This document shows positions 22,701 through 63,534 of a stretch of DNA of 64,000 nucleotides, in pieces. A program made the translations under genes and the position numbers. Under the pieces are notes generated by a model that ran no database searches, was not told the DNA's origin, and was given only the letters and a program-made list of their open reading frames with translations. Source of the stretch: Ostreococcus lucimarinus (Eukaryota); assembly GCA_000092065.1 (NCBI GenBank), contig CP000590.1, one strand, 5' to 3'. How positions within the stretch are numbered: the first letter of the stretch is position 1; every line of letters begins with the position of its first letter.

Positions 22701-25319
22701 ATGAGCGAAGACACCGAAACCTTCGCCTTCCAGGCCGAGATCAACCAGCTGTTGTCGTTGATCATCAACGTGCGTCTCGACGCCGACCGCGACCGCGCGC
22801 GCGCCGCGAACGATCGCGGCGTCGCGACGCGCATCGCGATGGCGCGTCGCGGGACGACGGCGCGTCGAACGCATCGACGCGCTCGCGACGCGAGCGAACG
22901 ACTGACGAGGAAATCGTGGATTCGAAACGATCGCAGACGTTTTATTCCAACAAGGAAATCTTCTTGCGCGAGCTCATCAGGTGCGAGGCGCGAACGGCGA
23001 CGCGATTCGCGCGCGATGGCGATCGACGCATCGCGATGCGATGGCGGCGGTTGACTTTACGCGATGACGATGCGCGCGGGCGGGCGCGGGGGGGACGGAC
23101 GCGAGCGCGCGATGCGTGAGAATTCGTTTCGACGGGCGCGCGCGCGGGCGAGGACGCGCGCGCGAGGGATGGGGTAGAAAACGCGCGATCGTGATTCGGG
23201 CGTGCGTTTTCGAGTCATCTTCCAGAAGGGTGAAGAAGGCGCGACGGCGAGGACGAGCGGCGGCGCGCGCGAGCGAGACGCTTGGACGAACGGTGTGACT
23301 GACGACGAACGGTGTGTACGCGCGAATAATAGTAACTCTTCCGATGCGCTCGATAAGATTCGATTCGAGGGCTTGACGGATAAGTCCAAGCTCGAGTCCC
23401 AACCCGAGCTGTTCATTCACGTCGTGCCGGACAAGACGAATAACACGCTGACCATCATCGATAGCGGCGTGGGGATGACCAAGGCGGATCTCGTGAACAA
23501 TCTCGGTACGATCGCGCGTTCTGGTACGAAAGCGTTCATGGAAGCGCTCACCGCGGGGGCGGATATCTCGATGATTGGCCAGTTCGGCGTCGGTTTCTAC
23601 TCGTCGTACTTGGTCGCCGAAAAGGTCGTCGTGTACACCAAGCACAACGACGACGAGGGCTACCGATGGGAATCTCAAGCCGGTGGTTCGTTCACGGTGA
23701 CCAAGGACGCGTCCGCGAACGAACTCGGTCGTGGTACGAAGATGGTGCTTCACTTGAAGGATGATCAGCTCGAGTACCTCGAGGAGCGCCGCCTGAAGGA
23801 TTTGGTCAAGAAGCACTCTGAATTCATCTCGTACCCGATTTCGCTTTGGACCGAGAAGACGACCGAGAAGGAAGTCTCCGACGACGAAGCCGAGGAGGCT
23901 GGCGAGGAAGAAGAGGGCAAGATCACCGAAATCAAGGACGAGGGTGACGAGGTCAAGGAGAAGAAGACGAAGACGATCAAGGAAGTTTCTCACGAGTGGG
24001 CCATCATGAACAAGCAAAAGCCGATTTGGATGCGCGTGCCGGAAGAAATCACCAAGGATGAGTATGCTGCGTTCTACAAGTCGCTCACCAACGATTGGGA
24101 AGAGCAACTTGCGGTGAAGCACTTCGCCGTCGAAGGTCAATTGGAGTTCAAGTCGGTGCTCTTCGTCCCGAAGCGCGCGCCGTTTGATATGTTCGACGGC
24201 AAGAAGAAGTCGAACAACATCAAGTTGTACGTCCGTCGCGTTTTCATCATGGACAACTGCGAGGACATCATTCCGGAATACTTGGGCTTCGTTAAGGGCA
24301 TCGTCGACTCCGAAGATTTGCCGCTCAACATTTCTCGCGAAATGCTCCAGCAAAACAAGATTCTCAAGGTTATCAAGAAGAACATCGTCAAGAAGTGCCT
24401 CGAGATGTTCAATGAAATCGCCGAGAACAAGGATGACTACACCAAGTTCTACGAATCTTTCGGCAAGAACTTGAAGCTCGGTATTCACGAAGATGCGCAA
24501 AACCGCAGCAAGATCGCTGAGTTGATCCGATACTCTTCCACCAAGTCTGGCGAAGAGCAAACGTCGCTCAAGGATTACGTCACGCGCATGAAGGAGGGCC
24601 AAAAGGACATCTACTACATTACCGGCGAATCCAAGAAGGCGGTCGAGAACTCTCCGTTCATCGAGAAGCTCAAGAAGCGTGGCTACGAAGTTCTCTTCAT
24701 GACCGATCCGATCGACGAGTATGCGGTGCAACAGCTCAAGGAGTACGACGGCAAGAAGCTCGTCTCCGTCACCAAGGAAGGTCTGGAGCTCGACGAAACC
24801 GAGGAAGAGAAGAAGCAAAAGGAGGAAGTCAAGGCGCAATACGAGAACTTGTGCCGATTGATCAAGGACATCTTGGGCGACAAGATCGAGAAGTGCGTCG
24901 TCTCCGACCGCGTCGTCGACTCCCCGTGCGTGCTCGTCACCGGCGAATACGGCTGGAGCGCCAACATGGAGCGCATCATGAAGGCGCAAGCGCTTCGCGA
25001 CAACTCCATGGGTAGCTACATGTCGAGCAAGAAGACGATGGAAATCAATCCGGATAACTCCATCATGAAGGAGTTGCGCAAGCGCGCCGATGCGGACAAG
25101 GGTGACAAGACTGTCAAGGATTTGGTCCTCCTCGTATTCGAAACTGCGATGCTCACCTCTGGCTTCTCCTTGGACGAGCCGACGACGTTCGGCGGTCGCA
25201 TCCACCGCATGATCAAGCTCGGTCTCTCCATCGATGAGGACGACGCCCCGGCGGTTGATGACTTGCCCGCGCTCGAGGAAGAAGTCGACGAAGGTTCCCG
25301 CATGGAAGAAGTCGATTAA
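22701..25319 (+). CDS. HSP90: cytosolic heat shock protein 90 (HSP90/HSP83), 3 exons: 22701..22769, 22937..22980, 23333..25319
   Basis: Exon 1 encodes [23 protein letters not shown]. Exon 2 encodes [14 protein letters not shown](S). Exon 3 starts [17 protein letters not shown] and runs to MEEVD at the C-terminus. Splice sites gtgcgt...cgcag and gtgcgag...aatag restore the canonical HSP90 N-terminus exactly, and the phase is conserved. Confidence 0.92.
22770..22936 (+). other. intron 1 of HSP90 (167 nt, GC-rich)
   Basis: Donor GTGCGT, branch-like CGACTGACG 33 nt before the acceptor CGCAG. Joining the flanks gives ...LIIN|TFYSN... Confidence 0.85.
22981..23332 (+). other. intron 2 of HSP90 (352 nt, GC-rich, phase 2)
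   Basis: Donor GTGCGAG, branch-like GTGACTGACG, acceptor AATAG. Joining gives ...[13 protein letters not shown]. Confidence 0.85.
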
Positions 25320-25565
25320 TCGCCGCGCGCAGCAGTTGTGTTGACAAAAACGAGAGCGCCGCGTCGGCGGCGAGGATAATAGAAGAAAATACGCACCCCT
25401 CCTTACGAGGCGTCGAGATATACACCATCAACGTGATGTAACGTCAGATTCACGCGCACACGATTCATTCGCTCGACCGCCCTCTCGTCCGCTACGCGCT
25501 CGAACCAGCCCGGCCCAACACCGTCGCGACGAGCGCGACGCGCCGCACACGCCGCCTCCGTCGGC

Positions 25566-26860
25566 ATGGCGCCCGATCGCCGACCCCCCGACGGCAAATG
25601 GGCGCGCGCGCGCATCACGCGGCCGACGTTCGGCGCCATGGCGTCATCCATAGGCGCTGTGGTCGTCCCCGTCGCGATCGCGATGGCGCTCTGCGTGTGG
25701 TTGGTGACGCTGTTGCGCGGTGACGCCACCGAAGACGCGGAGGCGACGAGCGGTGGGGTGATCTCGGCGGTGTACACCGAAAAGGTACGACGATTTAAGA
25801 CGCGCGCGCGGCGAACGGACGATTGAACGACGCGTGGGATGGGAAAACCTGATGTTGGCGCGCCGCGAGAGGGTGTTGAGACGCGGAAACGCGACCTCAT
25901 CGACGATGATACTGACGCACGCGATGTGATTTCGCGAGTAAACAGAGCGGTGATAGCGAGTACGTCAAATTTACGGGTAGTGTGGAGAACGCGGCGGTGT
26001 TCGTGGGGTTCATTACCGCCATGACGTTTGCCCTTTTTCTGCTCTTCAAGTATCGAATGGGCAAGGTGATTTGGGCGTACATGGGCTTCAGCGGATTGTT
26101 GATATTCGGCGTGCTCGGGGGAAATATTCTCATGCGAGTGCTGCAAAAGTTAGATATAGCGATAGATATGGTGACGGTGGGGCTGCTGATGTGGAATTTC
26201 TCAATCGGCGGCGTGCTGATGACATTTTTCTGGCACGGACCTCTGGTGGTGAAGCAAGGATATTTAATTTGTGTGTCCACGATCGTGTCGTTTTACTTCA
26301 CGCAGATTCCCGAGTGGACGACGTGGTCGCTTTTGATCGCGATGGCGCTGTACGATCTGTACGCCGTGCTCACGCCGAACGGGCCGCTCAGGTTGATGGT
26401 GGAGTTGGCGCAAGAGCGCGACGAAGACATTCCCGCGCTCGTGTACGAATCAAGGGGCGGAAGTTTCGGCGACGCGCGCGCTCGCGCGCGGCAAAATTCT
26501 GGTGTATCGGGCGAGGCAGTCGGGGCCGATGGGTCGCCGTACGATCCGTCGTTGGAAGCCGACGACGAAGACGGTGAGTTCGGACTTCCCGATTCCATCA
26601 AACTCGGTCTCGGAGATTTCATCTTCTACAGCGTCCTCGTCGGTCGAGCGGCGATGTGGTCTCCGATCACGTGCGCGTTTTGTTTCATCGCCGTGCTGCT
26701 TGGTTTAGTGCTCACGCTCGTCGCCCTCGGCATGTACGGCAAGGCGCTTCCCGCGCTCCCCGTGTCCATCGCCCTGGGCTCGGCGACGTACTTTCTCTCT
26801 CGATTTTTCCTCGAGCCCGCGATCGTGCAGTCCTACGCCAGGCACTTCCTGTGCGAATAG
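25566..26860 (+). CDS. PSEN: presenilin (intramembrane aspartyl protease, gamma-secretase catalytic subunit), 2 exons: 25566..25784, 25946..26860
   Basis: Exon 1 encodes TM1 and ends ...AVYTEK. Exon 2 continues SGDSEYVKFTGS... (compare human YTRKDGQLIYTPFT). It carries the catalytic YD in LYDLYAVLTPNGPLR, GLGDFIFYS, and the PAL motif in ALPALPVSI. Confidence 0.85.
25785..25945 (+). other. presenilin intron (161 nt, phase 0)
   Basis: Donor GTACGA, branch-like ATACTGACG 34 nt before the acceptor AACAG. Confidence 0.7.
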
Positions 26861-27045
26861 CGCGCGACTCGAATATTTCCCGACGACTCGCGTCGTCGTC
26901 GCCATCCGTAGAATGTAAACTTAGCCAGCCGCGTATTCCGCGCGTCGCGTCCGCCGCGCCCCGACCGGCCCTGGACGACGCGTCCCCACACCCGCGCGCG
27001 CGCCCGGTCGCGCCGATCGCCCCGTCGCGCTCGATTTCGACCGCG

Positions 27046-27557
27046 ATGTCCCTCGTCGTCGCGCGCGCGTCGACGCGCGCGCCGACGCGCGCCGGCGCGT
27101 CCGCGCGTCCGTCCCATCCGTCCCGCTCGAGGTTTCCCGCTCGAGGTTTGTCCCCAGTCTGTCGAAGCTCGGCGAGCGGAGACGGCGTCCCCGACCCGAT
27201 CAGCGCGCGCGAGAAAGCCGACGCCGCGCGCAAAGCCCTGCAGGGCGCGCTCGGGAACAAGCGCGACGTCCTGAGCAAGTTCGACGGCGGAGGAAAGGGC
27301 GGCGGGCCGCTGGACTGGTTCTTCGGCGGCGGCGGCGGCGACGACGACGGCGAAAACGCGCAAGCGCGAAAAATCGCCAACTGGGTCTTCCTCGCCTTCG
27401 TGGTGCTTTTGTTGTTCAAACCAGTCACCGCGGTGATCGTGAATGCGGTGTATTACGCGTTCGGGTGGCGCACGGGACGAGAGGCGCCGACGGAGGCGGA
27501 GCTCGCGGCGATGAACGCGCCCGCGGACGCGAGCGTGATATCAAAGTACGCCGCCGA

Positions 27558-27597
<40 letters not shown>

Positions 27598-27600
27598 TAG
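27046..27600 (+). CDS. hypothetical small membrane protein with transit-peptide-like N-terminus, Gly-rich segment, one TM helix and poly-Asp C-terminal tail
   Basis: ORF 26656..27600; the Met at 27046 begins MSLVVARASTRAP... The sequence includes GGGKGGGPLDWFFGGGGG, the TM helix WVFLAFVVLLLFKPVTAVIV, and ends D13-A. Confidence 0.4.
27556..27594 (+). repeat. (GAC)n trinucleotide microsatellite encoding poly-Asp
   Basis: GAT followed by 12 GAC, read directly at the 3' end of the ORF. Confidence 0.95.
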
Positions 27601-27727: not shown

Positions 27728-28363
27728 ATGGTCAAGCAAATCGCCAGCGCGGAAGAATTCGCCGCCATTAAAGCGGCCGGTAAACCGGTGCGTGCGTCGA
27801 CGCGCGATCGCGCGCGAATCGACGTCGACCGCGACGCGATCGCACTCGGCACCGTCTCGGAATGCGAACGCGCGATCGACGCGCGCGACGCGACGTTCGT
27901 CGAGCGAGGCGCGCGCGCGCGGGTCTGAAACGTGCGCGTCGTCATCGCGCGTCGATGCGCGGCGTCGCGCTCGCGCTCCACGCGTCTGGAACGATGCATT
28001 CGAACGCGTCGCGCGGCGGCGATCGATCGATCGCCGCGCGAAAACCGACGCGAGCCGAGCGAAGACTGACGACGTCACGCCGCGAACGCGCGTCGCGCGA
28101 AACAGGTCGTCGTTGATTTCACCGCGAGCTGGTGCGGACCGTGCAAGTCCATCGCGCCGTTCTTCGAGGAATTGGCGGCCAAGTACCCAGAAGTTGAATT
28201 CGTCAAGATCGACGTCGACGAACTCGAAGACGTCGCGGCCGAGTGCGGAATCTCCGCGATGCCGACGTTCCAAGTGTACTCCAACGGCGTGAAGGTTTCT
28301 GAAATGACTGGTGCGGACAAGGACAAGCTGTCCGCGCTCGTCAAGGATGCCAACGAGTTGTAG
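27728..28363 (+). CDS. TRX: thioredoxin (h-type), 2 exons: 27728..27787, 28106..28363
   Basis: Exon 1 encodes MVKQIASAEEFAAIKAAGKP. Exon 2 encodes VVVDFTASWCGPCKSIAPFFEELAAKYPEVEFVKIDVDELEDVAAECGISAMPTFQVYSNGVKV... with the WCGPC active site. The ORF track shows the two halves as separate ORFs in the same frame. Confidence 0.85.
27788..28105 (+). other. thioredoxin intron (318 nt, GC-rich, phase 0)
   Basis: Donor GTGCGTG, branch-like AGACTGACG 36 nt before the acceptor AAACAG. Confidence 0.8.
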
Positions 28364-28402
28364 GTGGATGAAGCGCGCGCTAGACGTACGAAAAGTTCAG
28401 GT

Positions 28403-33844: not shown

Positions 33845-36800
33845 ATGAGCGTTCACGATCGGTTCCCGCACTCGACCGCGGAGCTGTGCCGCGTAAACGC
33901 GGTGCAGTTTGGGGTGTTGTCGCCCGATGAGATCGTACGTGCATCGAACGCGCGCGCGCGCGAAGCGAAGGCGCGAAAGAGCGCCGGCGCGGGAGATCTT
34001 CGAGAGGGCGAGGCGGCGAGGGCGAACGCGCGACGCGGGCGACGAAGGCGAGCGAGCGCGCACTGACCGAACGTGAAACTTTCGCGCGATAGCGTAAAAT
34101 GTCCGTGTGCGCGATCGAGACGAGCGAGACGTACGAGAAGGGTAGACCCAAGCGAGGGGGTTTGTCCGATCCGCGCATGGGGACGATGGATCGCGGCGCG
34201 GTGTGCGAGACGGACGGGTGCGACAGCGTGCAGACGCCGGGTTACTTTGGGCATCTTGAGTTGGCGAAACCGGTGTACCATCATGGGTTCATCAACGTCG
34301 TGTTGAGAATTCTGAGATGCGTCGGATACTCGTCTTCGCAATTGTTGCTGCACAAGGACGAGGACCCAAAGTTTGCGCAGTTGATGCGAATCAAGAACCC
34401 GAAAAACCGATTGAAGAAACTCACCGACGCGTGTAAAACCAAGAGCGTGTGTCCGTACACCGGGACGGCGCAACCGCAGTATCGTTTGGAGGGAATGAAG
34501 ATCACCGCCGAGTTCAAGCACCGCGACGAGGAGCTGTTGCCGGAAGGTGGCGAACGCAAGGTGATCGTCACCGCGGAGCGCGCGTTACAGATCTTGAAGG
34601 CGATTTCTGACGAGGATTGCCGTGCGCTGGGTCTCGACCCCGAGCACGCGCGTCCGGATTGGTTCATCTTGCAAGTGATGCCCGTGCCGCCGCCGCCGGT
34701 TCGTCCGTCGGTGTCGTTCGACGCTTCCACGCGCTCGGAGGACGATTTGACGGTCAAGCTCATGGAAATCGTGAGAACGAATAAAAATTTAGAGAGACAA
34801 GAACAAAATGGAGCGCCGCAGCACGTCATTTTAGAATTTACAGAGCTGCTTCAGTATCACATCATGACCTTCATGGACAACACGGTGGCTGGCATGCCGC
34901 GAGCGCTCACGCGCAGCGGCCGAAGCATTAAATCCATTTCAGAGCGTTTGAAGGGCAAGGCGGGTAGAATTCGAGGCAACTTGATGGGTAAGCGCGTGGA
35001 TTTCTCTGCGCGTACCGTCATTACGCCCGATCCAAACTTGATGCTCGACGAGCTCGGAGTTCCGTGGTCCATCGCGTTGAACATGACGTATCCGGAAACC
35101 GTGACGCCGTACAACATCGATCGCCTTCAACGATTGGTCGAGAACGGCCCGCATCCACCTCCTGGTGAGACCGGTGCGCGTTACATCATTCGTGAGGATG
35201 GTCAGCGACTCGATCTTCGCTTCTTGAAGAAGTCGAGCGAGAAGCGTCTCGAGTACGGTTACAAAGTTGAACGTCACATGGTGAACGGAGACGTCGTCCT
35301 GTTCAATCGTCAACCTTCTTTGCACAAGATGTCCATCATGGGTCATCGCGTCCGAATCATGCCTTACTCGACGTTCAGATTGAACTTGTCTGTCACGCCG
35401 CCATACAACGCTGATTTTGATGGGGATGAAATGAACATGCACCTTCCGCAGTCTTACGAGACACGCGCGGAGGTGAAGGAGTTGATGATGGTACCGAAAA
35501 TGATCGTATCGCCCCAGGCCAACAAGCCCGTGATGGCTATCGTGCAAGACACCTTGTTGGGTTGCCGCTTGATCACGAAGCGCGACACCTTCATCACAAA
35601 GGACGTCTTCATGAACATCATCATGTGGTTGGAGGATTGGGACGGGAAGGTGCCGAAGCCGGCTATCCTCAAACCCCAACCTTTGTGGACTGGTAAACAA
35701 GTGTTTTCGATGATGTTACCGAAGGTGAACTTGCTTCGCACGAGTGCGTGGGCCAAGGACTCCGACGACATGGCTTTCAGCGTGGACGACACCGGTGTCC
35801 GAATTGAACAAGGCGAATTGCTCACCGGGACGCTGTGCAAGAAGACTATGGGTAGCGGCGGTGGCGGTTTGATCCACGTGACCTGGGAAGAGTGGGGTCC
35901 CATCGCCGCACGCGGGCTCATCTCTCAGACGCAGACGCTCGTCAACTACTGGGTGCTCCACCACGGTTTCACCGTCGGCATTGCGGATACCATTGCGGAC
36001 GACGAGACAATGTTCTCCATTAACAACACCATCACCAAGGCTAAAGCTGACGTGAAGGAAGTCATCAAACTCGCACAAAACAATGAACTCGAGTTGCAAC
36101 CGGGTATGACGATGCAACAATCGTTCGAACAGAAGGTGAACCAAATCTTGAACAAGGCGCGTGATAACGCTGGTAACTCGGCGCAAAACTCGCTTATGGA
36201 TACCAACAATGTCAAGATGATGGTGACGGCCGGTTCGAAGGGTTCGTTCTTGAACATTTCGCAGATGATTGCGTGTGTAGGACAACAAAACGTAGAAGGA
36301 AAACGTATTCCGTACGGTTTCAAAGGCAGAACATTGCCGCACTTTAGCAAGGATGATTTCGGTCCCGAGTCGCGTGGTTTCGTCGAGAACTCGTATTTGC
36401 GTGGTTTGACTCCTCAGGAGTTCTTTTTCCACGCCATGGGTGGCCGAGAAGGTTTGATCGATACTGCAGTTAAGACGTCTGAAACTGGTTACATCCAACG
36501 TCGTCTTGTCAAGGCTATGGAGGACGTGGTTGTCAAGTACGACGGCACTGTGCGTAACAGCGTCGGCGACGTCATCCAGTTCTTGTACGGCGAGGACGGC
36601 ATGGACGCGACCATGATTGAAAGCCAATCCATCGATACGTTGCGTTTCAGCGTGAAGGAGTTCGCGGCGAAGTTCCACATCGATCCAGATGTCCCGGGCT
36701 TTAACAATGGCTGGTTGAGCGAGGAGCAAGCGAGCGAACTCGCGCACACTGCAAAGGTGCGCGAGATTCTTGACGCAGAATGGGATCGACTTCAGCGCGA

Positions 36801-38943
36801 CCGAGTCGAACTGCGAACGATTTGTCCCACAGGGGATCCTCACGTGCACTTACCAGTGAACATGAAGCGTATCTTGTGGAATGCACAAAAGCAGTACGGC
36901 CTGTACCGACCGGATTCTGGCGAAGAAGAGGTCAAGGTGACGCACATCATCGAGAGCGTCGCTGAACTTTTGCCGAAGCTCATCGTGGTGCCTGGTACAG
37001 ATCCGTTATCCGTCGAAGCGCAAAGAAACGGTACGATGCTATTTTTCGCGCACGTGCGCGCCAATTTGGCAGCCAAGCGCGTGCTGAAAGAACACAAGCT
37101 CACGCGCGCCGGCTTCGACTGGGTCATCGGCGAAATCGAATCACGCTTCAAGATGGCACTTGCGCCGCCCGGTGATGGTATTGGCACGGTTGCCGCGCAA
37201 TCAATCGGTGAGCCGGCGACGCAGATGACGTTGAATACGTTCCACTTCGCCGGTGTGTCCGCCAAGAACGTGACCCTTGGTGTGCCGCGCTTGAAAGAAA
37301 TCATCAACATCGCGAAGAGCATCAAGACGCCAAGCTTGACGATCGCACTCAAGCCAGAGTTAGCTGGTGACAGAACGAGAGCGAAGGACTGTCAAGCGAG
37401 CCTAGAGTACACCACGCTCCACAGCGTTGCCGCAGTCACCGAGGTTCACTACGATCCAGATCCCACGGACACTGTCATCGAGGAAGACCGCGAATTCGTT
37501 CGCGCGTACTACGAAATGCCAGACGAAGACGTTGACCCGTCGCGCATGTCCCCATGGTTGTTGCGTATCGAGCTTAACCGTGAGATGATGGTAGACAAGA
37601 AGCTCCTCATGGCGGATGTTGCGGAGAGAATCAACGAAGATTTCGCCGGCGACTTGAGCTGCATCTTCAACGACGACAACTCTGAAAAGTTGGTGTTGAG
37701 AATTAGAATCATGAACCCCGAAGGCGTGAAATACGAGGACGCCTCGACCGAGGACGAAGTATTCTTGAAGCGTCTCGAGACGCAGATGTTGAGCAACCTT
37801 GCATTGCGCGGTATTCCAGACATTAAGAAGGTTTTCATCCGCGAAGCCAAACAAAACGCCATCAACAGCAAGACGGAGCTCTTCGAGAAAACCACCGAGT
37901 GGATGTTGGACACCGAAGGCGTCAACTTGCTCGAAGTCATGGCACATCCGGACGTCGACTTCACGAGAACTACATCTAACCACTTGATTGAAGTGATTCA
38001 AGTTCTTGGCATCGAAGCGGTGCGCAATACGCTCTTGCGTGAGTTGCGTGGTGTGATTGAGTTCGACGGTTCGTACGTGAACTACAGACATCTCGCGATT
38101 CTCGTCGAAGTGATGACATACCGTGGTCACTTGATGTCGATTACGCGACACGGCATCAACCGCGTGGAGACCGGTCCGCTCATGCGCTGCAGCTTCGAAG
38201 AAACTGTCGACATTCTCATGGAGGCGTCGGCGTTCTCTGAGCGAGACAATATGACTGGGCCGAGCGAGAATATCATGCTCGGGCAGTTCTGTCCGATCGG
38301 TACCGGGGAGTTCAAGCTGCACTTGAACGACGAGTTGTTACAAGATGCAGTTGAGTTAGAACTGTTCGGGGATGGATCTAGGACCCCTGGACACGGCGGA
38401 ATGATGACGCCGGGGCGCGATGGAACGCCCGGTTGGGGATCAAAGTCGCCGAGTTTCTTGTTGAGTCCAGGTGGACATCAAAGTCCGTTCGATACAAGCA
38501 TGGCATTCTCGCCGTACTCCGATGGCATGGCGTTCTCACCGGGAATGTCCCCTGGTGGTTTTGGAGGTTACTCCCCCACGAGTCCAGCGTATTCTCCGAC
38601 GAGCCCAGCATACTCCCCCACGAGTCCGGCGTACTCGCCCACGAGCCCAGCGTACTCGCCCACGAGTCCAGCGTACTCGCCCACGAGCCCGGCTTACTCG
38701 CCCACGAGTCCAGCGTACTCCCCCACGAGTCCAGCGTACTCCCCCACGAGTCCGGCGTACTCGCCCACGAGCCCAGCGTACTCGCCCACGAGTCCAGCGT
38801 ACTCGCCCACGAGCCCGGCTTACTCGCCCACGAGTCCAGCGTACTCCCCCACGAGTCCAGCGTACTCCCCCACGAGTCCGGCGTACTCGCCCACGAGCCC
38901 AGCGTACTCCCCGAAAGAGGAAGAAGAAAACGAAGAAGAATAG
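33845..38943 (+). CDS. RPB1: DNA-directed RNA polymerase II largest subunit RPB1, 2 exons: 33845..33934, 34093..38943; CTD of 16 perfect YSPTSPA heptads
   Basis: Exon 1 encodes ...VNAVQFGVLSPDEI. Exon 2 continues RKMSVCAIETSE..., which restores the conserved VQFGxLSPDEIRxMSV. All RPB1 regions A-H are recognisable (NADFDGDEMN metal-binding site and others). The C-terminus holds tandem YSPTSPA repeats ending YSPKEEEENEEE. Confidence 0.93.
33935..34092 (+). other. RPB1 intron (158 nt, phase 0)
   Basis: Donor GTACGTG, branch-like GCACTGACC 30 nt before the acceptor GATAG. Confidence 0.85.
38569..38904 (+). repeat. RPB1 CTD heptad array: 16 x 21-bp units encoding YSPTSPA, containing a perfect 126-bp (6-heptad) tandem duplication (38632..38757 = 38758..38883)
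   Basis: Unit-by-unit reading shows synonymous variation between neighbouring heptads. The 6-unit block is repeated identically, and a 7th identical unit starts a third copy. Confidence 0.9.
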
Positions 38944-39048
38944 AGGAAAGGAGACAACTGTTTGTTTTAATGCATCACTGCACAGTTACGTTGCACAAGA
39001 TTTTGTTTACAACAACTTTCGGCGCCGCGCTCGATTATAATAAACTGT

Positions 39049-40572
39049 TCACAGTTTTGACTGTGGGCGCGTCATTTCTTCAGGCTTTATCCATTCATCG
39101 AACTGTTCGTTCGTCAGTAAACCGAGCGCGATGCCAGCTTCGCGTAAAGTTAAACCTTCGGCGTGTGCTTTTTTCGAAATTTTTGCGGCGTTGTCGTACC
39201 CGATCTTCGGCAGCAAGCTGGTGACGAGCATTAAGCTGCTTCGCATGAGCGCGTCGATGCGCTCGATGTTTGGTTCGATACCAACGACGCAGTTTTGCGT
39301 GAAGCTGATGACCGAATCAGAAAGGAGCGCGATGGAGTTCAGGTTGTTGTGAGCGATCAGAGGCTTAGCTACGTTGAGCTCAAAGTGGGAGCTCGCGGAA
39401 CCGCCGATGGTGACCGCGAGATCGTTACCGATGACTTGCGCGCACACCTGCATCAGACTTTCGCACTGCGTCGGGTTCACCTTACCAGGCATGATACTGC
39501 TTCCGGGCTCGTTTTCAGGCAGCTGAAGTTCGCCGAGTCCGGCGCGAGGTCCAGAGCCGAGAAGACGAATATCGTTGGCAATTTTCAACAACGAAATCGC
39601 GATAGTCTTCAACAGACCGGACAGCGCGGACTGCGCGTCGTGTGCGGCGAGCGCCTCAAACTTATTTGGCGCGCTCACGAACGGCAAACCGGTTAATAGG
39701 GAGATTTCCGCCGCCATCGCCTCGCCGAAACCTGGTGGCGAGTTTAGCCCCGTGCCGACGGCGGTGCCGCCGATGGCGAGCTCGAGCAAGTGAATGAGCG
39801 CACCTTTGGCGCGCACGAGAGAATTCTTGCACTGTTGCTCGTACCCACTGAATTCTTGCGCGAGCGTGATCGGGACGGCGTCTTGAAGATGCGTTCTGCC
39901 GATTTTCACTATGCCTCCCCACGCGAGCACTTTCTGGTGCAACGCCTCCTGCAGCATTTTCAACGCCGGAATCAGCCGCTCTTGCACTTCGTGCGCGGTG
40001 GCGATGGACATAGCGGTCGGAAACGTATCGTTACTCGACTGCGATTTGTTGACGTGATCGTTCGGGTGAATCGGAGACTTGGTCCCGACGGCGCCGCCGA
40101 GCACGCGCGAATTCGCGTAATTCGAGATGACCTCGTTCAGATTCATGTTCGTCTGCGTCCCACTTCCCGTTTGCCACACGGCGAGCGGAAAATGATCATC
40201 CAACCGTCCCTCCACCACCTCCCGCGCCGCCTTTCGAATCGCATCCGCCAATCTCGGCTCCAGTCCCCCCGCCCGTTCGTTCACCGTCGCCGCCGCGTAC
40301 TTGACGATGGCCAAGCTTCGCACGATCGCCACCGGCATCTTCTCCCCCCCGATCCTAAAATTCTGCAGCGACCGCTGCGTCTGCGCCCCCCACAGCTTAT
40401 CCGCGGGCACGCGCACCTCTCCCATCGTGTCCGTCTCGACGCGCCACCCGCGCTCGCCCTCACCGCTCGCCGTCGTCGTCGGCGCGAGCGACGTCCCGTG
40501 CGCGACGATCCGCGTCTCGTCCCGCGCGTTCGACGCCCGCATCAGCTCCACCAACCGCTCCGCGAACGGCAT
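39049..40572 (-). CDS. FUM: fumarate hydratase class II (fumarase C), mitochondrial-type presequence
   Basis: [15 protein letters not shown] signature. Conserved along the whole length ([30 protein letters not shown] and others). Confidence 0.93.
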
Positions 40573-46194: not shown

Positions 46195-47175
46195 TTAATC
46201 GCCACTTCCCCAGGCGTCGCCGAAGGAGGCGGCTCCGGGCGCGCCGCGATTGTCGAACCCGCCCGGCCCGCCCGGAGGACCGAACTGCTGCGGCGGACGT
46301 GGGGGCACGGGATATCCCATAGCCTTGAGTAAAATGCGTGACATCTCTCCGTACAAATGCCCGCCGCGGTCTAGGAGCTGCAACAGCGACATGATGAAAA
46401 AATGCAACGCCTGCGTGTTTTCGTCGACGAGAAAGGAAATCTTCCCAAACAAGTGCACGACGGACGACAAAGAGTGCATGAGCGCCTGCCAACCCGTCAA
46501 CGGCGGCGCGCCGGGCGGTGGACCACCGGGCCCATACGGTCCCATGGGTGGCTGCCCGTACATCCCGCCGCCGTACATCCCGCCGCCGTGCCCGCCGTAC
46601 ATCCCGCCGCCGTACCCGCCGTACATCCCGCCGCCGTACCCGCCGCCGTACCCGCCGCCGTACATCCCGCCGCCGTACCCGCCGCCGTACATCCCGCCGC
46701 CGTACATCCCGCCGCCGTACCCTCCGTACCCGCCGCCGTACATCGAATTTCCGTACGCGCCTCCCCGATACCCTCCGTACATCGAATTTCCGCCGTACGG
46801 CGCGCCTCCGTACGTCGTCCCCGCGTACCCGCTCGGCGACGCCCCGTGCGACGTCCCTCGATTCGTCGTCTCCCACGCTCGACTCTCCGGCGTCGCCGTC
46901 GTTCCCGTCGGATTATTCACCGTCGCCACGGGCGCTATCGCGCGAACGTCGTCGTCGTCGTCGTCGTCAGTCTCTCCGCGTTCGCCTTCGCCTTCGCCTT
47001 CGCCTTCGCGTCGCGTCGCCCGTTCGCTCGTTCGCGCACCGCTCGGCGTCTGTCCCGCCCCCGGCTTATCCCACGGTTTCACCGCGCTTCCGTCGGCCAC
47101 CGGCGTGGACTTCACCGCCGTCTCGCCCGCGCCCGCCGCCGCGCGCCACGGTTTCGGCGGCGGCGGCGTCGCCAT
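46195..47175 (-). CDS. PEX13: peroxin PEX13-like (Gly/Tyr/Met-rich repeat region plus conserved Peroxin-13 N-type domain; no SH3, as in plants)
   Basis: GGGMYGGGYGG repeats, then SVVHLFGKISFLVDENTQALHFFIMSLLQLLDRGGHL (compare human PEX13 SVVHTVGSIAMMLDSTYMALHNSFRAVLDVANHFSRL). The plus-strand Pro/Tyr-rich ORF is its antisense. Confidence 0.7.
   Translation of the reverse strand: MATPPPPKPWRAAAGAGETAVKSTPVADGSAVKPWDKPGAGQTPSGARTSERATRREGEGEGEGERGETDDDDDDDVRAIAPVATVNNPTGTTATPESRAWETTNRGTSHGASPSGYAGTTYGGAPYGGNSMYGGYRGGAYGNSMYGGGYGGYGGGMYGGGMYGGGYGGGMYGGGYGGGYGGGMYGGYGGGMYGGHGGGMYGGGMYGQPPMGPYGPGGPPPGAPPLTGWQALMHSLSSVVHLFGKISFLVDENTQALHFFIMSLLQLLDRGGHLYGEMSRILLKAMGYPVPPRPPQQFGPPGGPGGFDNRGAPGAASFGDAWGSGD
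46540..46800. repeat. imperfect tandem DNA repeats (ccgccgccgtacatcccg-type) encoding the Gly/Tyr/Met repeats of PEX13
   Basis: Repeats of 18-30 bp with variants, visible by direct reading. Confidence 0.8.
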
Positions 47176-50793: not shown

Positions 50794-52436
50794 ATGAGTT
50801 CTCCCGCGCGTAAACGCGGCGCTGAGAACGCGTCGCCGGGCCTGTGCACGCCCACGGATGCGTCGCCGGAGACGTCGATCGCGACGCCGCACTACGGCGA
50901 GCGGGAGAGCGGTAATAAACGAGGACGGGTGAAGAAGGATGATGAGACGGGGGCGAGCGGACGAGAGTCGAGCGGACGAGAGTCGAGCGGCGAACGGGCG
51001 TCTCGATCGTCCGTGCGTCAGGTAGCGGTGAAGATGCATCTGGACGCGACCCGAACGCGAATGCGAGAGCTGTGCGCGGATTTGGCGGCTAATTACGAAC
51101 GGGCGAGGCGCGCGAGGTAGGGATTCCGGACGATTGCGCTCGAATCGCGTCGGGTCGGACGCTCGGCGCGAACGGCGATGACGCGCTCGGACGATCGCGC
51201 GCGAGAAAGACACTGACGCGTTGGATGTATTGATCATTACAGTGCCCACGCCGCTCGCGAAGAGGCGAGATTGGCCGCGGAAGATATTTTAGACGAGCTC
51301 GAGGAAGTGGAACGGTACGTTTGAACGCACGAAAGACCCGAACCGTTTGAACGGGCACTGACTTCGTTCTTTTTCGCGTCCTTTGCAGGCGACTTCGTGC
51401 GATCGGTGACGACGAACCCGCGGTGGCGGCGATGTTGACGTACTTGTCGTTCGTGCGACGAAAGTCGCGAACGATGGTGACGTTGAACGACATCAACGAG
51501 GACACCCTGCAACTCATTTTGCGGCGAATCGAAGCGCCGTCGCCGAAAGAGTTACTCGCGCTTTCGCTCGTCAACAAACGGTTTCGCGCGGCGATCCGAA
51601 GCCCTACTGTGTGGCATACGCTCGATCTCAGCCGACATGCGGCGACGATGACGAACAAAGTGTTGTACGGGATAGTCAAGGACGACAACGCGTTCGCGTC
51701 CATCGAAGTGCTGAACTTGAGCGGGTGTTCGCAACTCACGGATCTTTCAGTGTTGAAGGTGTTGAACAAGTGCCATCACACCATTCGAGAGATCGATTTG
51801 AGTGGATGCGAACTCTTGACGCTCGAAACCGCGGAGTACATCGGCTTCCACTGCCACGAGCTCGAGCGACTCGACCTCACGGGCTGCAAGCGCGTGCCGA
51901 CGACGTTTTTGTTTCAGAACCTTCCCATCATGCAGTTGAACCTCAAAGACTTGCGCGTCAAAGGGACGAAGCATCTCAACGGGCGCGTTGACGAAGTCGA
52001 CTTTGAAGATCTCGTGGACGCCATCGCGAAATACGTTCGTTGGCTTCAATCGTTCGATGGGACAGTCTTTGACAAGGGTGACGTCCGAGACGTGATGGAG
52101 CTCGTCCACGTGTGCGAGGAGCACCTCGAGTTTTGGCGAAGTGGGAATGCGGTCGCGATCTGTGATCACGCGAGTGAATTACAAAACAATGATCCAACGA
52201 GCACGCCCATGTGTACCATCTTTCCGGAGTGCGGTCACGTCATGTGCGTCGAGTGCTCGGCCGTGGAGCGCCGAAACATGATGCGCGAGGGCGGACGTTA
52301 CGTCTACCCGTGCTCACATTGCGCGCACCCAGTGCGTTTCATGCCCGCGCCGGGCGGATTTGAAATTGTCGTTCACTCGCCCGAAGACTTCAAAAAGCTG
52401 CTCGCCGAACGGCGACGTTTGGGTGGTCCGCCTTGA
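50794..52436 (+). CDS. F-box/LRR-repeat protein with C-terminal Cys/His zinc-binding module; proposed 3 exons 50794..51116, 51243..51314, 51389..52436 (core CDS 51432..52436 certain)
   Basis: F-box LNDINEDTLQLILRRIEAPSPKELLALSLVNKRFRAAIRSPTVWHTLDL. LRRs LNLSGCSQLTDLSV, IDLSGCELLT, LDLTGCKRV. The proposed splices ag|GTAGGG...ATTACAG and GGTACGT...CCTTTGCAG join three ORFs into one continuous reading (...ANYERARRA-S-AHAAREEARLAAEDILDELEEVE-R-RLRAIGDDEPAVAAMLTYL...). Both introns carry CACTGAC. Confidence 0.7.
51117..51242 (+). other. proposed intron 1 of F-box gene (126 nt, phase 2)
   Basis: Donor GTAGGG, branch-like ACACTGACG 39 nt before the acceptor TTACAG. Confidence 0.45.
51315..51388 (+). 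other. proposed intron 2 of F-box gene (74 nt, phase 2), AT-richer with polypyrimidine tract
   Basis: Donor GTACGT, branch CACTGAC, then TTCGTTCTTTTTCGCGTCCTTTGCAG. Confidence 0.5.
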
Positions 52437-52870
52437 ACGAGGAGTAGTCCTAGCAAACGCCGACGCCGCGAGCGCGTTTTAGTTCTCTACTAGTGCTTTG
52501 CTACTGCTGTACCAATTTTGTAACGCAATGCGTAGATGTATTACGATTCGTACCGTTGTGATCGCGGAGTTACAGGCGAGAGACGAGGCACATTCTTCGG
52601 TGATGTCACGAAAACTTCGTATTACAGGTGAAATGCCGCCGCCCCGCTGCGGGGCGCCGCGTCGCCGAGAGCTTTATCGACGGACTAGAAAGAAGTGGGT
52701 TGAGCTTTCGCCAGGATACAAACCTGAGCGTATAGATCACGCTTATGAGAAAGCGCGCTTACTTACTGTGGGCAGGATAAAGTATAATGTCGTCAGTCTT
52801 TTGTTCGGTTCGGGTTGGGGTCGGCGTCGGGGACGGGAGCTTTCGCTTCTCTTTCGCCTCAAAAGAAAAC

Positions 52871-54055
52871 TTACCTGAGCGCATTCGTCGCGTTGAGATC
52901 TTCATAAGCCGCAAGCAACCGGTCGCACGTCGCTTGTTCCGCGGATCGGATCCACGCGCGCGGATCGTAGTACTTCTTGTTCGGCTTTTCGGCGCCCTCC
53001 GGGTTGCCAATTTGGCCTTGGAGGTACGCGTTGTTCTTGGCTTCGTAGTTCTTGACGCCATCCCAGAAGCTCCACTGGGTGTCGGTGTCGATGTTCATCT
53101 TGATGACACCGTAGCCAACCGCCTCACGGATTTCTTCGCGGGAAGAACCGGAGCCGCCGTGGAAGACAAAGTACACCGGCTTGTCGCTGTCGCCGCCCGT
53201 CTTTTCCTTGACGAACTTTTGCGCGTTGGCCAAAATCTTCGGCGTGAGCTTGACGTTACCCGGGGAGTAGACGCCGTGCACGTTACCGAACGCCGCAGCG
53301 ATGGAGTAGAAGTCCGGCGCGATCGGTTGGAGCGCTTCGTAGACTTGGTAGATCTCTTCCGGCTTGGAGTAGAGGTCTTCCGGCGCGACGTCCGAGTTGT
53401 CGACGCCGTCCTCCTCGCCGCCGGTGATGCCGATCTCCATCTCGAGGAAGCAGTTGATCTTCTTCATGCGCGCCAAGTACTTCTTGCAGATTTCCAAGTT
53501 CTCCTCGATCGGTTCCTCGCTCAAGTCGAGCATGTGCGACGAGAACAACGGTTCACCGTGCTTGGCAAAGTACGCCTCGTTCGCCTCCAACAAGCCGTCG
53601 AACCACGGGAGCAAGTTTTTCGCGCAGTGGTCGGTGTGCAAAATCACCGGCACGCCGTACAGCGCCGCCAATTCCCGCACCATGACCGCGCCCGCGACGC
53701 ATCCCGCGACCGCGGCCTTCTCATCCGCGTTGCTCGTGCCCTTACCGGCCATGAAGTATCCGCCGCCGTTTGAGAATTGCACGATCATCGGCGCGTTCGC
53801 CTTCTTCGCCGCCTCGAGGCACGCGTTGATCACCGGCGACATCGTGCAGTTCACCGCCGGAATCGCGTATCCGTGATGACGCGCGTGGTTCAGCACGTCG
53901 ATCATGTCCTGTCCCGTGACGACGCCCGTCTTCAGCGTCTTCGGCGGCGCGCTCACCGCCGCGCGCGTCTTCGTCGCGCGTCGCGATCGCGACGCGGTGC
54001 TCCGCGACGTCGTCGTCGCGATTCGCGCGGTGTGCGCGAGCTGGCTCGCGTGCAT
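52871..54055 (-). CDS. FBA: fructose-bisphosphate aldolase class II (FbaA-type) with transit-peptide-like N-terminus
   Basis: HTDHCAKNLLPWFDGLLEANEAYFAKHGEPLFSSHMLDLSEE and the remaining class II FBA zinc/substrate motifs. Full length 394 aa. Confidence 0.93.
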   Translation of the reverse strand: MHASQLAHTARIATTTSRSTASRSRRATKTRAAVSAPPKTLKTGVVTGQDMIDVLNHARHHGYAIPAVNCTMSPVINACLEAAKKANAPMIVQFSNGGGYFMAGKGTSNADEKAAVAGCVAGAVMVRELAALYGVPVILHTDHCAKNLLPWFDGLLEANEAYFAKHGEPLFSSHMLDLSEEPIEENLEICKKYLARMKKINCFLEMEIGITGGEEDGVDNSDVAPEDLYSKPEEIYQVYEALQPIAPDFYSIAAAFGNVHGVYSPGNVKLTPKILANAQKFVKEKTGGDSDKPVYFVFHGGSGSSREEIREAVGYGVIKMNIDTDTQWSFWDGVKNYEAKNNAYLQGQIGNPEGAEKPNKKYYDPRAWIRSAEQATCDRLLAAYEDLNATNALR

Positions 54056-56144: not shown

Positions 56145-56866
56145 CTACTCGAACGGTGCGGGAACGGTGTTGGCGTCGGTCTCCTTCTGACGCCGGCGCG
56201 ACCAGCGAGAGACGTCTTCGCCCGCGAGCGTGTCCGTCGCCGCCTGCCCGCGCTCGAACCGCTCGCGGCGCGTCGCCGCCAACTTCTCGTCCGTGTCCAC
56301 AAACTTGCGCATGAGCCAGTGCAACGCGATCGTCGGCGGGTTGCGAATGTTCGGCACCAATCCTCGAACGTTTCGTGCGGGCACCCAATCCGACAACCCG
56401 TTCCCCCAAACCAACGTGTGTTCGTCCACGACGCCGTTCACCCAGCACTGTCGCATCGTGTTCAACGGCGCCGGTCCACGGCACTTACCCACGCGATCGC
56501 GGTAAAACCACACGTTATTATCGTTCGCTGTTTTCGGTCGAAAATTCACGAAACCGTCGTCAGTCGCGCGTTCGTCGTCGTTCGCTTCGTCTCGCCGTCG
56601 CCGTCGACCCTACGCCGCGAGAAGGTCCACCGGTTTCCTCGCTTTCGCGCGCCCGTCGTCGCGCGCGTTCGCGCGCGCGCGCTTCCGCGGTGTCGAACGC
56701 GCGCTCGCGCGTCGCGCGCGGGCGCGGCGCGACGCGCACCGTCCGTCGCGCGAAGATCGTTCCGCGCTTCAAACTTGTACGGCCCGAGCTTGTCTCGCCA
56801 CGACTGCAGGTACTTTCTGCGCGATTCCGTCGCGTCCGTGGGGCTGTCTTCGCCGTAGAAGCTCAT
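56145..56866 (-). CDS. GYF-like/DUF4339 domain protein, proposed 2 exons (minus strand): 56740..56866 and 56145..56527
   Basis: Exon 2 encodes WFYRDRVGKCRGPAPLNTMRQCWVNGVVDEHTLVWGNGLSDWVPARNV. Exon 1 (MSFYGEDSPTDATESRRKYLQSWRDKLGPYKFEARNDLRATD) joins through donor GGTGCGCG, branch GACTGACG 31 nt before the acceptor AAAACAG. The apparent Met of ORF 56145..56549 is a GTG. Confidence 0.5.
56528..56739 (-). other. proposed intron of GYF-like gene (212 nt, phase 1)
   Basis: See CDS evidence. The donor/branch/acceptor pattern is identical to the other introns in the window. Confidence 0.45.
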
Positions 56867-58248: not shown

Positions 58249-58720
58249 GGCGTCCGCGCGCGGCGTCGTGCTCGGGTGCGCGCGAATCGCGCGCGTCTCG
58301 CGCGCGCGACTGACGACGGCGCGCAGCGCGTACAGAGAGCTCGTGTGGCTCGCGCGACGCGCGCGGGCGGAGGAGCGGCGAAGACTCGAGGACGTCGTCG
58401 CGGACGTCGCGCGGCGCGCGCGCGCGGCGCGCGGGGCGAACGCGACGGCGGCGGACGTCGCGGACGGCGTGCGACGATTGGTGGGGACGGTGGGGTACGC
58501 GCGAGCGATGACGTCGAGGGTCGGGCGACGACGGTTCGAGTGGGACGAGGACGCGCGCGAGGCGACGCGCGTCGTGGAGCGAACGGGAGGAAAGAGCGGA
58601 CGCGAACGCGTCGCGAACGGCGTGCTGAGTCGAGAAGACGCGTGGGCGTATCACAATAGGTTGATCGATCGACAACACTTCGGGAGACGGTTGAAAAAGT
58701 TTAAGCCGGAACCGCTGTAG
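58247..58720 (+). CDS. hypothetical small protein with LYR-like motif (Complex1_LYR-type)
   Basis: RSAYRELVWLARRARAEERRRLEDVV resembles the LYR/F motif. Non-repetitive C-terminus ...AWAYHNRLIDRQHFGRRLKKFKP. It lies at the 3' end of a long plus-strand ORF that is otherwise antisense noise. Confidence 0.4.
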   Translation: MASARGVVLGCARIARVSRARLTTARSAYRELVWLARRARAEERRRLEDVVADVARRARAARGANATAADVADGVRRLVGTVGYARAMTSRVGRRRFEWDEDAREATRVVERTGGKSGRERVANGVLSREDAWAYHNRLIDRQHFGRRLKKFKPEPL

Positions 58721-58776
58721 ACGGCGGGATGCAATAAATACATGAAATGGGACGCGCTCGGCGGCGACGGAGCGCT

Positions 58777-60396: not shown

Positions 60397-60580
60397 GACG
60401 GCGGTCGCGACGCGGTGTGGACGCGCGACCGGTCGAAAGACCCGAAGCCCGCGAAGGTGCCGCGAAGGTGCCGCGAAGGCTGGAACGCGGCGAAGGCGAG
60501 GCGAGACGAAAGCGACGCGCGATGGGCGTCGCACGGCGGTGGTGCGCGCGATTTGAGATGAAATGCATCTCTGGGTTACA

Positions 60581-62503: not shown

Positions 62504-62601
62504 GGCGTCCGAGAGTGCGGGCGCGACCGTCGTCGGGACGGGACGCGGGCAAAAGTGGTACAGTAATGTTACACGATGCCCCCGACGCGTCGTCGGGCGC
62601 G

Positions 62602-63534
62602 CTAATCAGAATCGCTACCGTAATCGCCGAGCAAACCCCCGAGCCCGGCCGGAGGCGGGGATTCAGCCTTCGGCGGCGCGGCGGCGGCGGTCGATTTGAC
62701 CTTTGCTTTGACCGCGGCATTCGTCGGACGCTTGACGACGACACTCACCGCGGGCGCGTCCACGCGAGCTTTCTTCGCCGCTGCATGATCGTCGTCGTCG
62801 CTCTCGCTCTCGATGCGCTTGACGATTTTCGCGCGCTGTTCCTTAAAAATAGCGCGCGCGGTTTCCGCGTCCAACTCGTCGGCTCTGCGCGCGAGACAAG
62901 GTGAAATAAAAGTCAGTCTTCCCGTTCGGAAATTGGCGTCGCGCTCGCATCTGAGGCGTCGACGGCACGGCGCACTCGCGTACCTCTCCTTATCCGTTCT
63001 CGTATTCGCCGTCATCGCGTTCAAAGCGTCCGCGTTCGATATTCCGGCGTGTCTCGCGTTGAGCGACCGCATCTCGTCCAACGCCGCCATGATATCCATC
63101 TCTCGTTTACTCTCCTCCGTTCGATTCTCCAATCGCCGCATCTCGTTATTTTCCTCATCATCCGCGCGCGCTTTCGCCTCATCTTCCTCCGTCGTGTCCT
63201 TCCACGCCTCAAAGTTTCGCGACGCCCCGGCTTCGACGACGTAGTCCCCGTTCTTCGGGTCCGTCTTCATCGCCAACTCCGCGCTGCATCGCGTGCATCG
63301 AAAGTAAAACCTAAATATTTGTATTCCCAAGTAGTCTTCGCCCTTGACGTCCTCCTTGCGCGCGTTGAATTTCGTGCCCTTGCAGATGAATTCGCCGCAC
63401 GTGTTGCAGCAAATCGTCATGGGGAGCATGATTCTGACTTTGATTTGTCCACCCTTCGGCGCCCTGCCGCGCGGGATCTTGGCCGGATCGAAGTCGGGAG
63501 GGATGTACTTGTTCAGCACCTTGCGCTCGCCCAT
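62602..63534 (-). CDS. YJU2: splicing factor YJU2/CWC16 (CCDC94 homolog), proposed 2 exons (minus strand): 62984..63534 and 62602..62884
   Basis: MGERKVLNKYIPPDFDPAKIP...CNTCGEFICKGTKFNARKEDV...YLGIQIFRFYFRCTRCSAELAMKTDPKNGDYVVEAGASRNFE is near-identical to the YJU2 N-terminal zinc module. A 99-nt in-frame segment (62885..62983) has donor GGTACGCGAG, branch AGACTGAC, a pyrimidine tract and acceptor CGCGCAG, so it is annotated as an intron. Confidence 0.8.
   Translation of the reverse strand: MGERKVLNKYIPPDFDPAKIPRGRAPKGGQIKVRIMLPMTICCNTCGEFICKGTKFNARKEDVKGEDYLGIQIFRFYFRCTRCSAELAMKTDPKNGDYVVEAGASRNFEAWKDTTEEDEAKARADDEENNEMRRLENRTEESKREMDIMAALDEMRSLNARHAGISNADALNAMTANTRTDKERYASAPCRRRLRCERDANFRTGRLTFISPCLARRADELDAETARAIFKEQRAKIVKRIESESDDDDHAAAKKARVDAPAVSVVVKRPTNAAVKAKVKSTAAAAPPKAESPPPAGLGGLLGDYGSDSD
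62885..62983 (-). other. proposed YJU2 intron (99 nt, frame-preserving, no in-frame stop)
   Basis: Strong splice signals, and the encoded 33 aa (YASAPCRRRLRCERDANFRTGRLTFISPCLARR) are unlike the flanking protein. Intron retention would still be translatable. Confidence 0.55.

Follow-up and report, generated by a model that had tools for sequence, protein, structure and literature searches.

The DNA analysed here is a 64,000-nt stretch of the Ostreococcus lucimarinus genome (GenBank assembly GCA_000092065.1, contig CP000590.1), referred to below as the window. It carries the usual green-algal set of housekeeping genes and has a G+C content (GC) of 52-70% per 2-kb segment, with a mean of ~62%. 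A number of its genes are interrupted by introns that share the hexamer ACTGAC a short way upstream of their 3' splice sites, and it is the nature of these introns that concerns us. A first-pass annotation had inferred nine of them, in genes for HSP90, presenilin, thioredoxin, RPB1, an F-box protein, a GYF-domain protein and YJU2. The GYF_2, Saf4/Yju2 and F-box genes were identified by Pfam matches and those for HSP90, thioredoxin and presenilin by searches of the PDB, while the identity of RPB1 comes from the Pfam annotation of orthologous loci. The nine introns are the following, with the distance of the branch-point adenosine (branch A) given relative to the 3' splice site:

22770-22936, plus strand: HSP90 intron 1, 167 nt; donor GTGCGTC; GACTGACG at 22900-22907; acceptor CGCAG; branch A at 31 nt
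22981-23332, plus strand: HSP90 intron 2, 352 nt; donor GTGCGAG; GACTGACG; acceptor AATAG; branch A at 30 nt
25785-25945, plus strand: presenilin intron, 161 nt; donor GTACGAC; TACTGACG; acceptor AACAG; branch A at 30 nt
27788-28105, plus strand: thioredoxin h intron, 318 nt, phase 0 after codon 20; donor GTGCGTG; GACTGACG; acceptor AACAG; branch A at 36 nt
33935-34092, plus strand: RPB1 intron, 158 nt; donor GTACGTG; CACTGACC; acceptor GATAG; branch A at 26 nt
51117-51242, plus strand: F-box intron 1, 126 nt, phase 2; atypical donor GTAGGGA; CACTGACG; acceptor TACAG; branch A at 26 nt
51315-51388, plus strand: F-box intron 2, 74 nt, GC 0.51; donor GTACGTT; CACTGACT; T-rich tail; acceptor TGCAG; branch A at 27 nt
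56528-56739, minus strand: intron of the GYF-domain gene, 212 nt, phase 1; donor GTGCGCG; GACTGACG; acceptor AACAG; branch A at 32 nt
62885-62983, minus strand: YJU2 intron, 99 nt, in frame and free of stop codons, GC 0.61; donor GTACGCG; GACTGACT; T-rich tail; acceptor CGCAG; branch A at 28 nt

All nine hold up at the bounds first proposed or within 1 nt of them. In three of the genes, splicing restores a conserved protein. Removal of HSP90 intron 1 joins LSLIIN to TFYSNK, intron 2 interrupts the Ser codon of ELI-S-NSS, and the N-terminus obtained without both introns aligns gaplessly over residues 1-163 with a plant HSP90 (PDB 4x9l). The spliced thioredoxin of 105 residues aligns with solved thioredoxins from residue 1 and is gapless across its junction (AGKP/VVVDF). 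For presenilin, the junction YTEK/SGDSEYV spans the loop 1 sequence YTPFTEDTETV of human presenilin-1 without a gap at the junction, and the acceptor is the first YAG past the branch site (Y, pyrimidine). The frame of the F-box gene, which runs from the ATG at 50794 through exon 2 (AHAAREEARLAAEDILDELEEVER), is open only with the bounds 51117-51242 for intron 1, and exon 2 of the GYF-domain gene gives the Pfam GYF_2 match.

The remaining introns could be followed across related genomes. Protein identity and shared gene order place the host within Ostreococcus. The exact product of the fumarase open reading frame (ORF; 39049-40572, minus strand) is found on dozens of marine metagenome contigs (Tara, JGI, ENA), five of which are 99.6-99.9% identical to the window across 21 kb; no named NCBI protein matches it. 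The closest clusters of fumarase proteins show 85-89% identity, O. mediterraneus 75% and Micromonas commoda and M. pusilla 70-74%, and the neighbouring 2-hydroxyacid dehydrogenase is 77% identical to an O. tauri protein, so that the host is distinct from both of these Ostreococcus species. Synteny was found with O. tauri (L012), an O. mediterraneus-like contig (L008/L030) and two further lineages, here called X (L007) and species Y (L011/L013). A locus chosen through protein P0243 was dropped from the comparison because its contig is not syntenic, the contig bearing P0031 was too short to be of use, and P0247, initially considered to represent a new species, proved to stem from another O. tauri strain.

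In these relatives, the RPB1 intron occupies the identical codon in three other lineages (L011, L007 and L008, with lengths of 133, 138 and 196 nt), each time with a GT[AG]CGT donor, a single ACTGAC and a YAG acceptor, and the four orthologous introns are unalignable outside their splice signals. The GYF intron has counterparts at the corresponding site in species Y and O. tauri, 233 and 92 nt long, respectively (the latter length also being implied by the NCBI gene range), and in both it is bordered by the exon 1 and exon 2 peptides. Both F-box introns keep their positions in O. tauri (L012) and species Y (L013), all with ACTGAC; the pyrimidine content of the tail of F-box intron 2 is 0.68 in species Y, where it is T-rich, and an ordinary 0.50 in O. 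tauri. The YJU2 intron is shared with at least six other Ostreococcus lineages, whereas the gene of species Y lacks it (L013, positions 1863-1867; L019-L028) and encodes exactly the spliced form of the protein (QTEAE-R-ADEED). In the diverged contigs L017 and L018, 11 of the 99 intron positions differ, as opposed to 2 of 120 in the flanking exon, and none of these differences affects the GT, the ACTGAC or the AG. Since splicing restores conserved HSP90, thioredoxin and presenilin sequences and the RPB1, GYF, F-box and YJU2 introns recur at the same codon elsewhere, the nine introns are, on these comparative grounds, considered real.

Each of the nine contains exactly one copy of ACTGAC (9/9), in agreement with the first-pass annotation, whereas dinucleotide-preserving shuffles predict 0.30 of nine introns with the motif anywhere and 0.046 of nine with a branch A 20-40 nt from the 3' end (observed, 9/9 in both cases). 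The distance to the 3' splice site is constrained, as had been claimed, the branch A being located 26-36 nt ahead of the intron's final base; the proposed range of 30-39 nt needs a slight correction, the span from the first base of the motif to the last base of the intron being 31-41 nt. Over the whole window and both strands, ACTGAC is not enriched (19 copies, 21 expected). Verified or probable introns occupy ~1.8% of the strand space but contain, in the sense direction, 15 of the 19 copies. Outside introns, four copies stand against 18.8 expected; a specific avoidance of the motif in this space was considered and rejected, because control hexamers are equally depleted (AGTGAC, 0.21; ACTAAC, 0; CCTGAC, 0.31). 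The extended form GACTGACG is present in four of the nine introns and in 9 of 14 overall. The donors comprise four GTGCG, four GTACG and one GTAGG, and correspond to the original description except for F-box intron 1, whose donor is GTAGGG, following an exon that ends in phase 2 when read from the ATG at 50794.

When the introns of the window are combined with their orthologues, giving 28 intron instances, the same three signals recur throughout: the donor is GT[GA]CG in 26 instances, the branch motif is ACTGAC in 27 and ACTGAT in one (L035), and the acceptor is always YAG. The introns are 69-352 nt long, with a GC of 0.43-0.71 and 21-48 nt between branch site and acceptor. Where exon homology set the acceptor, it coincides without exception (30/30 introns) with the first YAG past the motif, and AG dinucleotides are nearly absent between motif and acceptor. 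The deviating ACTGAT is found in the YJU2 intron of one O. mediterraneus-like population (L035-L041; ~3640 of L035), where the sister contig L030 has ACTGAC, and is a natural variant of an otherwise fixed motif. The interiors of GC-rich introns such as 22770-22936 and 27788-28105 have a G+C fraction of 0.68-0.71, compared with 0.56-0.63 in the flanking exons, and these CpG-rich segments of low complexity produce spurious matches of ~75-80% identity with numerous CG-rich tracts of either strand.

The first-pass annotation was right to see in ACTGAC a near-invariant branch-point motif whose distance from the 3' splice site is constrained, but this was already known as the published signature of canonical Ostreococcus introns. 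In expressed sequence tag-confirmed introns of O. lucimarinus outside chromosome 2, ACTGAC was reported in 87.2% and GACTGACG in 66.5% of cases, together with the atypical 5' consensus GTGCGTG (Irimia and Roy, 2008; PLoS Genet 4:e1000148; PMC2483917), so that the central observation of the first-pass annotation constitutes a rediscovery. The introns of the window resemble this canonical type in the near universality of ACTGAC, the frequency of GACTGACG (9/14, compared with the published 66.5%), the GTGCG-type donor, the GC-rich interior, the low intron density and the strong 3' intron structure, which is general to intron-poor genomes. Nothing of substance differs, GTGCG and GTACG donors being about evenly represented here. 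A comparable organization is known from the introns of hemiascomycete yeasts with their UACUAAC box, which likewise combine a near-invariant branch site and a constrained branch-acceptor distance with little reliance on a polypyrimidine tract and a 5' position bias in an intron-poor genome. They differ from the introns of the window in that the latter have G instead of A at position 4 of the motif (ACUGAC), a GUGCGU/GUACGU rather than a GUAUGU donor, and a high GC.

Five or six additional introns that were absent from the first-pass list carry the same signals. Leaving aside the aldolase gene, which is treated below, they are the following:

46935-47039, minus strand: intron of a Gly/Tyr-rich protein gene, 105 nt, in frame; donor GTGCGCG; GACTGACG; acceptor GATAG; branch A at 32 nt from the 3' splice site
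58276-58335, plus strand: probable intron of a small conserved gene, 60 nt, proposed from its signals; donor GTGCGCG; GACTGACG
5142-5252, plus strand: probable intron of a WD40 gene, 111 nt, proposed from frame continuity and signals; donor GTGCGCG; GACTGACG; acceptor CGCAG
10985-11149, minus strand: probable intron, 165 nt, proposed from frame and signals; GTGCG donor; GACTGACG; TAG acceptor
10851-10938, minus strand: probable intron, 88 nt, proposed from frame and signals; GTGCG donor; GACTGACG; TAG acceptor

The last three lie outside the range covered by the first-pass annotation (22770-63000). Those at 10985-11149 and 10851-10938 enclose a 46-nt exon at the 5' end of the gene at 9631-10872 (minus strand), and the frame beyond them runs into the downstream ORF (GVSEYADVDDVLGDS-G-LADADALNAF). 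The gene with the intron at 58276-58335 has its ATG near 58247 and the C-terminus HFGRRLKKFKPEPL; because conservation with the orthologues of O. tauri and species Y does not extend to its N-terminus, the acceptor may be either CGCAG or TACAG. A further ACTGAC at 3901-3906 (plus strand) is preceded by GTGCGCG and looks intron-like, but the first YAG is 50 nt away and the sequence that follows it appears to be coding, with a peptidoglycan-binding-like motif, so that it may or may not mark an intron. The intron at 46935-47039 has a counterpart in the corresponding place of L008 (~3560-3700), the O. mediterraneus-like contig, while the site is uninterrupted in O. tauri (L012) and species Y (L011). 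Because this intron and that of YJU2 are both present in distant lineages and missing in species Y, or in species Y and O. tauri, the comparison of these loci points to intron loss. For the 46935-47039 intron, this implies independent losses, and species Y, in which both introns are gone, appears to be prone to losing introns.

A different distribution is seen for one intron at the very end of a gene:

52766-52874, minus strand: intron of the class II fructose-bisphosphate aldolase gene, 109 nt, GC 0.51; donor GTAAGT; GACTGACG; acceptor CACAG; branch A at 27 nt from the 3' splice site

The aldolase intron is situated 4 nt ahead of the stop codon and has the only GTAAGT donor among the catalogued introns. 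The gene (52874-54055, minus strand) ends in ALR when left unspliced, because a TAA stop codon overlaps the perfect donor CAG/GTAAGT; the intron itself ends in CCCACAG, followed by TAAGTAA. Two JGI contigs (L088 and L089) are 99-100% identical to the window and lack exactly these 109 nt, with the junction gcgctcag/taagtaag, so that their proteins end in ALSK, comparable with CSK in O. tauri and LAK in species Y. The two contigs start within 6 nt and end within 2 nt of each other, and L089 contains the aldolase gene only, whereas L088 is fused upstream to unrelated genes. Given their nearly coincident ends and the single-gene content of L089, they look like assembled transcripts; the Ga0186 sample series presumably consists of re-assembled culture transcriptomes. 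If the JGI samples 3300016815 and 3300042101 were metagenomes instead, the intron would be polymorphic within the species. Whether or not the contigs are transcripts, they fix the bounds of the element, and the aldolase intron is the only one for which transcript-like contigs precisely without it were found.

The aldolase intron is absent from O. tauri (L012, L091) and species Y (L013) and apparently also from a 94%-identical relative (L092), and its junctions repeat the CAG and TAAGT of the uninterrupted site (CTCAG^TAAGTAAG). This lineage restriction, together with the unique GTAAGT donor, the junction repeats and the extreme 3' position, suggests a recent gain in this Ostreococcus lineage, a possibility that we advance tentatively and at somewhat less than even odds; repeated loss may instead underlie the distribution. 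The intron already has a perfect GACTGACG branch site, and its insertion would have been nearly neutral, because the spliced (ALSK) and unspliced (ALR) C-termini are almost identical. Scans of viral contigs with two pieces of the aldolase intron, and with a YJU2 peptide as a partly inaccurate query, yielded no match. In species Y, the 3' end of the aldolase gene (L013, ~13430-13500) shows a 23-nt direct duplication (GCTTGCCAAGTAAAGTCTTGCGA) around a short spacer that ends in ACTGAC; it lies at the stop codon, the same site as the extra intron of the window species.

Taken together, we interpret the introns of the window as ordinary U2-type spliceosomal introns of Ostreococcus, of the kind that is standard outside the low-GC outlier region of the genome, and put the probability of this reading at roughly 0.9. 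Their recognition would depend on three short, constrained signals, namely a GT[G/A]CG-type donor, ACTGAC, often in the form of GACTGACG, and the first YAG 21-48 nt downstream. U2 small nuclear RNA (snRNA) contains a conserved GUAGUA box, with which ACUGAC would pair such that its penultimate A is bulged out as the branch nucleophile. Given so strong a branch site and a 3' splice site that is defined by the next YAG, the polypyrimidine tract would be dispensable, an optional feature whose strength varies from intron to intron, and the interior would merely serve as unconstrained CpG-rich filler. Selection would then act only on the three splice signals, with interiors and lengths free to vary. 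Most of the introns would be old, common to the Ostreococcus species and sporadically lost, rather than copies of each other. Three points weigh against this interpretation. The catalogue is partly motif-guided, so that introns without ACTGAC could have been missed and the motif may be less than invariant. For eight of the nine listed introns, the junctions are derived from homology and cross-species comparison. Finally, both the pairing with U2 and the dispensability of the pyrimidine tract are inferred, and an Rfam search of the window found neither an snRNA gene nor any other RNA family. An unbiased catalogue was attempted by codon-usage log-odds segmentation, which was too noisy; genes were better located with an ORF filter based on the periodicity of GC at third codon positions (GC3).

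The first-pass annotation had divided the introns into two classes, and this distinction holds insofar as those at 51315-51388 and 62885-62983 are indeed AT-richer and have pyrimidine-rich tails (pyrimidine fraction 0.83 in F-box intron 2 and 0.75 in YJU2, as opposed to 0.33-0.50 in the other seven). It is conceivable that these differences reflect two mechanisms, in which GC-rich introns are recognized through the branch site alone while AT-richer ones need a polypyrimidine tract and U2AF, and the TT that replaces the G after ACTGAC in both AT-richer introns, as well as the T-rich tails of several of their orthologues, would fit this idea. However, both introns keep ACTGAC, a GTACG donor, a CAG acceptor, the usual spacing and the first-YAG rule, and the pyrimidine content of the tail varies continuously from 0.33 to 0.83 over the 28 introns. 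Orthologues of GC-rich introns can be pyrimidine-rich (0.61 for RPB1 in L008 and 0.72 for F-box intron 1 in O. tauri), introns of low GC tend to be short instead of forming a cluster of their own, and two or three cases are too few to reveal two modes. GC likewise grades without a break from 0.51 to 0.71 among the 14 window introns and their orthologues. The evidence for a separate class is thus weak, and the apparent two classes look like variation within one class; a split into two mechanisms is improbable, and there is just as small a chance that the pyrimidine tract is functionally relevant for a subset of the introns. Still less credible, to the point of being negligible, is the proposal that the AT-richer pair represents the known second class of Ostreococcus introns from the low-GC outlier region of chromosome 2, even though the two are the shortest and most AT-rich of the first-pass list. 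This AT-richer and shorter class is documented in Mamiellophyceae (Derelle 2006; Palenik 2007; PMC2367439, PMC3879977). Its introns have weak signals with GTRNGT donors (Irimia and Roy, 2008; PMC2483917) and measure 40-65 bp without canonical splice and branch sequences (Lanier et al., 2008). The pair departs from it in length (74 and 99 nt), branch consensus and donor, as both introns possess a perfect ACTGAC and GTACG as part of a full set of canonical signals and are surrounded by DNA of 58-62% GC.

Another alternative, raised by the first-pass annotation, is that the introns belong to introner families, that is, recent near-identical mobile copies as in Micromonas pusilla CCMP1545. The introner elements (IE) of Micromonas (IE-A/B/D in CCMP1545 and IE-C/ABC-IE in RCC299; Worden 2009, Verhelst 2013, Simmons 2015, van Baren 2016) come from the same algal class and are functional spliceosomal introns, and the short IE-C/ABC-IE family of RCC299 shares the GACTGACG branch motif with the introns of the window. 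The lineage-specific aldolase intron, with CAG and TAAGT repeated at its two junctions, could also be seen in this light. Yet introners are highly alike, occur in hundreds to thousands of copies and occupy lineage-specific positions, whereas the introns studied here have dissimilar interiors and mostly shared positions. After removal of the donor and branch-to-acceptor parts, local alignment of 78 pairs of interiors against dinucleotide shuffles gave z values no higher than 2.4, with a median of 0.24. When the 14 introns were compared by blastn, the longest match other than to self (63 nt with 78% identity, or 30% of the longer intron) falls short of the clustering at 80% identity or more over 80% of the length that defines a family. 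Higher scores obtained along the way, namely z values of up to 9.5 with mononucleotide shuffles and a lenient global identity of 0.71, were discarded, the former as a misleading effect of CpG-rich low complexity that vanishes with dinucleotide shuffles and the latter as lying inside its shuffle range. BLAST of the introns against the 64-kb window returned no second copy and only CG-rich low-complexity matches, on both strands and in coding as well as intergenic DNA, and in 747 kb of fetched Ostreococcus DNA, the five AT-richer introns matched nothing but their orthologues. Six of the seven comparable positions (RPB1, GYF, F-box 1 and 2, YJU2 and 46935) are common to other species, that of the aldolase intron being the only lineage-specific one, and orthologous introns are unalignable inside. 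Moreover, introner elements are described as unique to Micromonas among the Mamiellophyceae (Verhelst et al.). Within the DNA sampled, membership in an introner family is not supported, and it is very improbable. A final alternative concerns the segments at 62885-62983 (YJU2) and 46935-47039, which could be coding insertions rather than introns, given that both are multiples of three without a stop codon and are read through by ORF callers, which yields a 310-residue YJU2 and a 326-residue product in metagenome annotation. Against this, some orthologues lack exactly these segments, and others hold at the same site an unrelated segment of another length that is nevertheless built as GT[AG]CG...ACTGAC...YAG. 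In addition, the read-through peptide (RYASAPCRRRLRCERDANF) has no counterpart in any orthologue, and the YJU2 segment diverges ~six times faster than its flanks in L017 and L018. We consider a coding role of these segments highly unlikely.

Prokaryote-style metagenome gene calls translate the introns of these genes (proteins P0377-P0391; loci L093-L095). A 705-residue "HtpG" call, for instance, starts with MRFRVIFQ inside the 3' part of HSP90 intron 2 and therefore has a spurious N-terminus, and the 310-residue YJU2 and 326-residue Gly/Tyr-rich protein calls retain their in-frame introns. At the 3' end of RPB1 (~38900-38960 of the window), contigs from the same species (L001, L002 and L004) vary in length by ~100-155 nt next to the 21-nt heptad repeats of the C-terminal domain, a difference that could reflect a length polymorphism or an assembly collapse.

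For the genome of this alga, the results have a practical consequence, since prokaryote-style tools mis-annotate its intron-bearing genes in metagenome data, while the combination of a GT[G/A]CG donor, ACTGAC and the first YAG predicts its introns very reliably. Beyond the published signature, our comparison adds cross-species evidence that conservation is limited to the splice signals and that the first YAG downstream of the motif invariably serves as the acceptor, and it also documents intron loss between Ostreococcus species. The aldolase intron, should it prove young, is possibly of interest for the origin of introns in intron-poor genomes. If it is a true gain, it would provide a datable case of a new intron that meets the strict signals of such a genome, and it could have arisen by intron transposition, reverse splicing or the insertion of a low-copy element.

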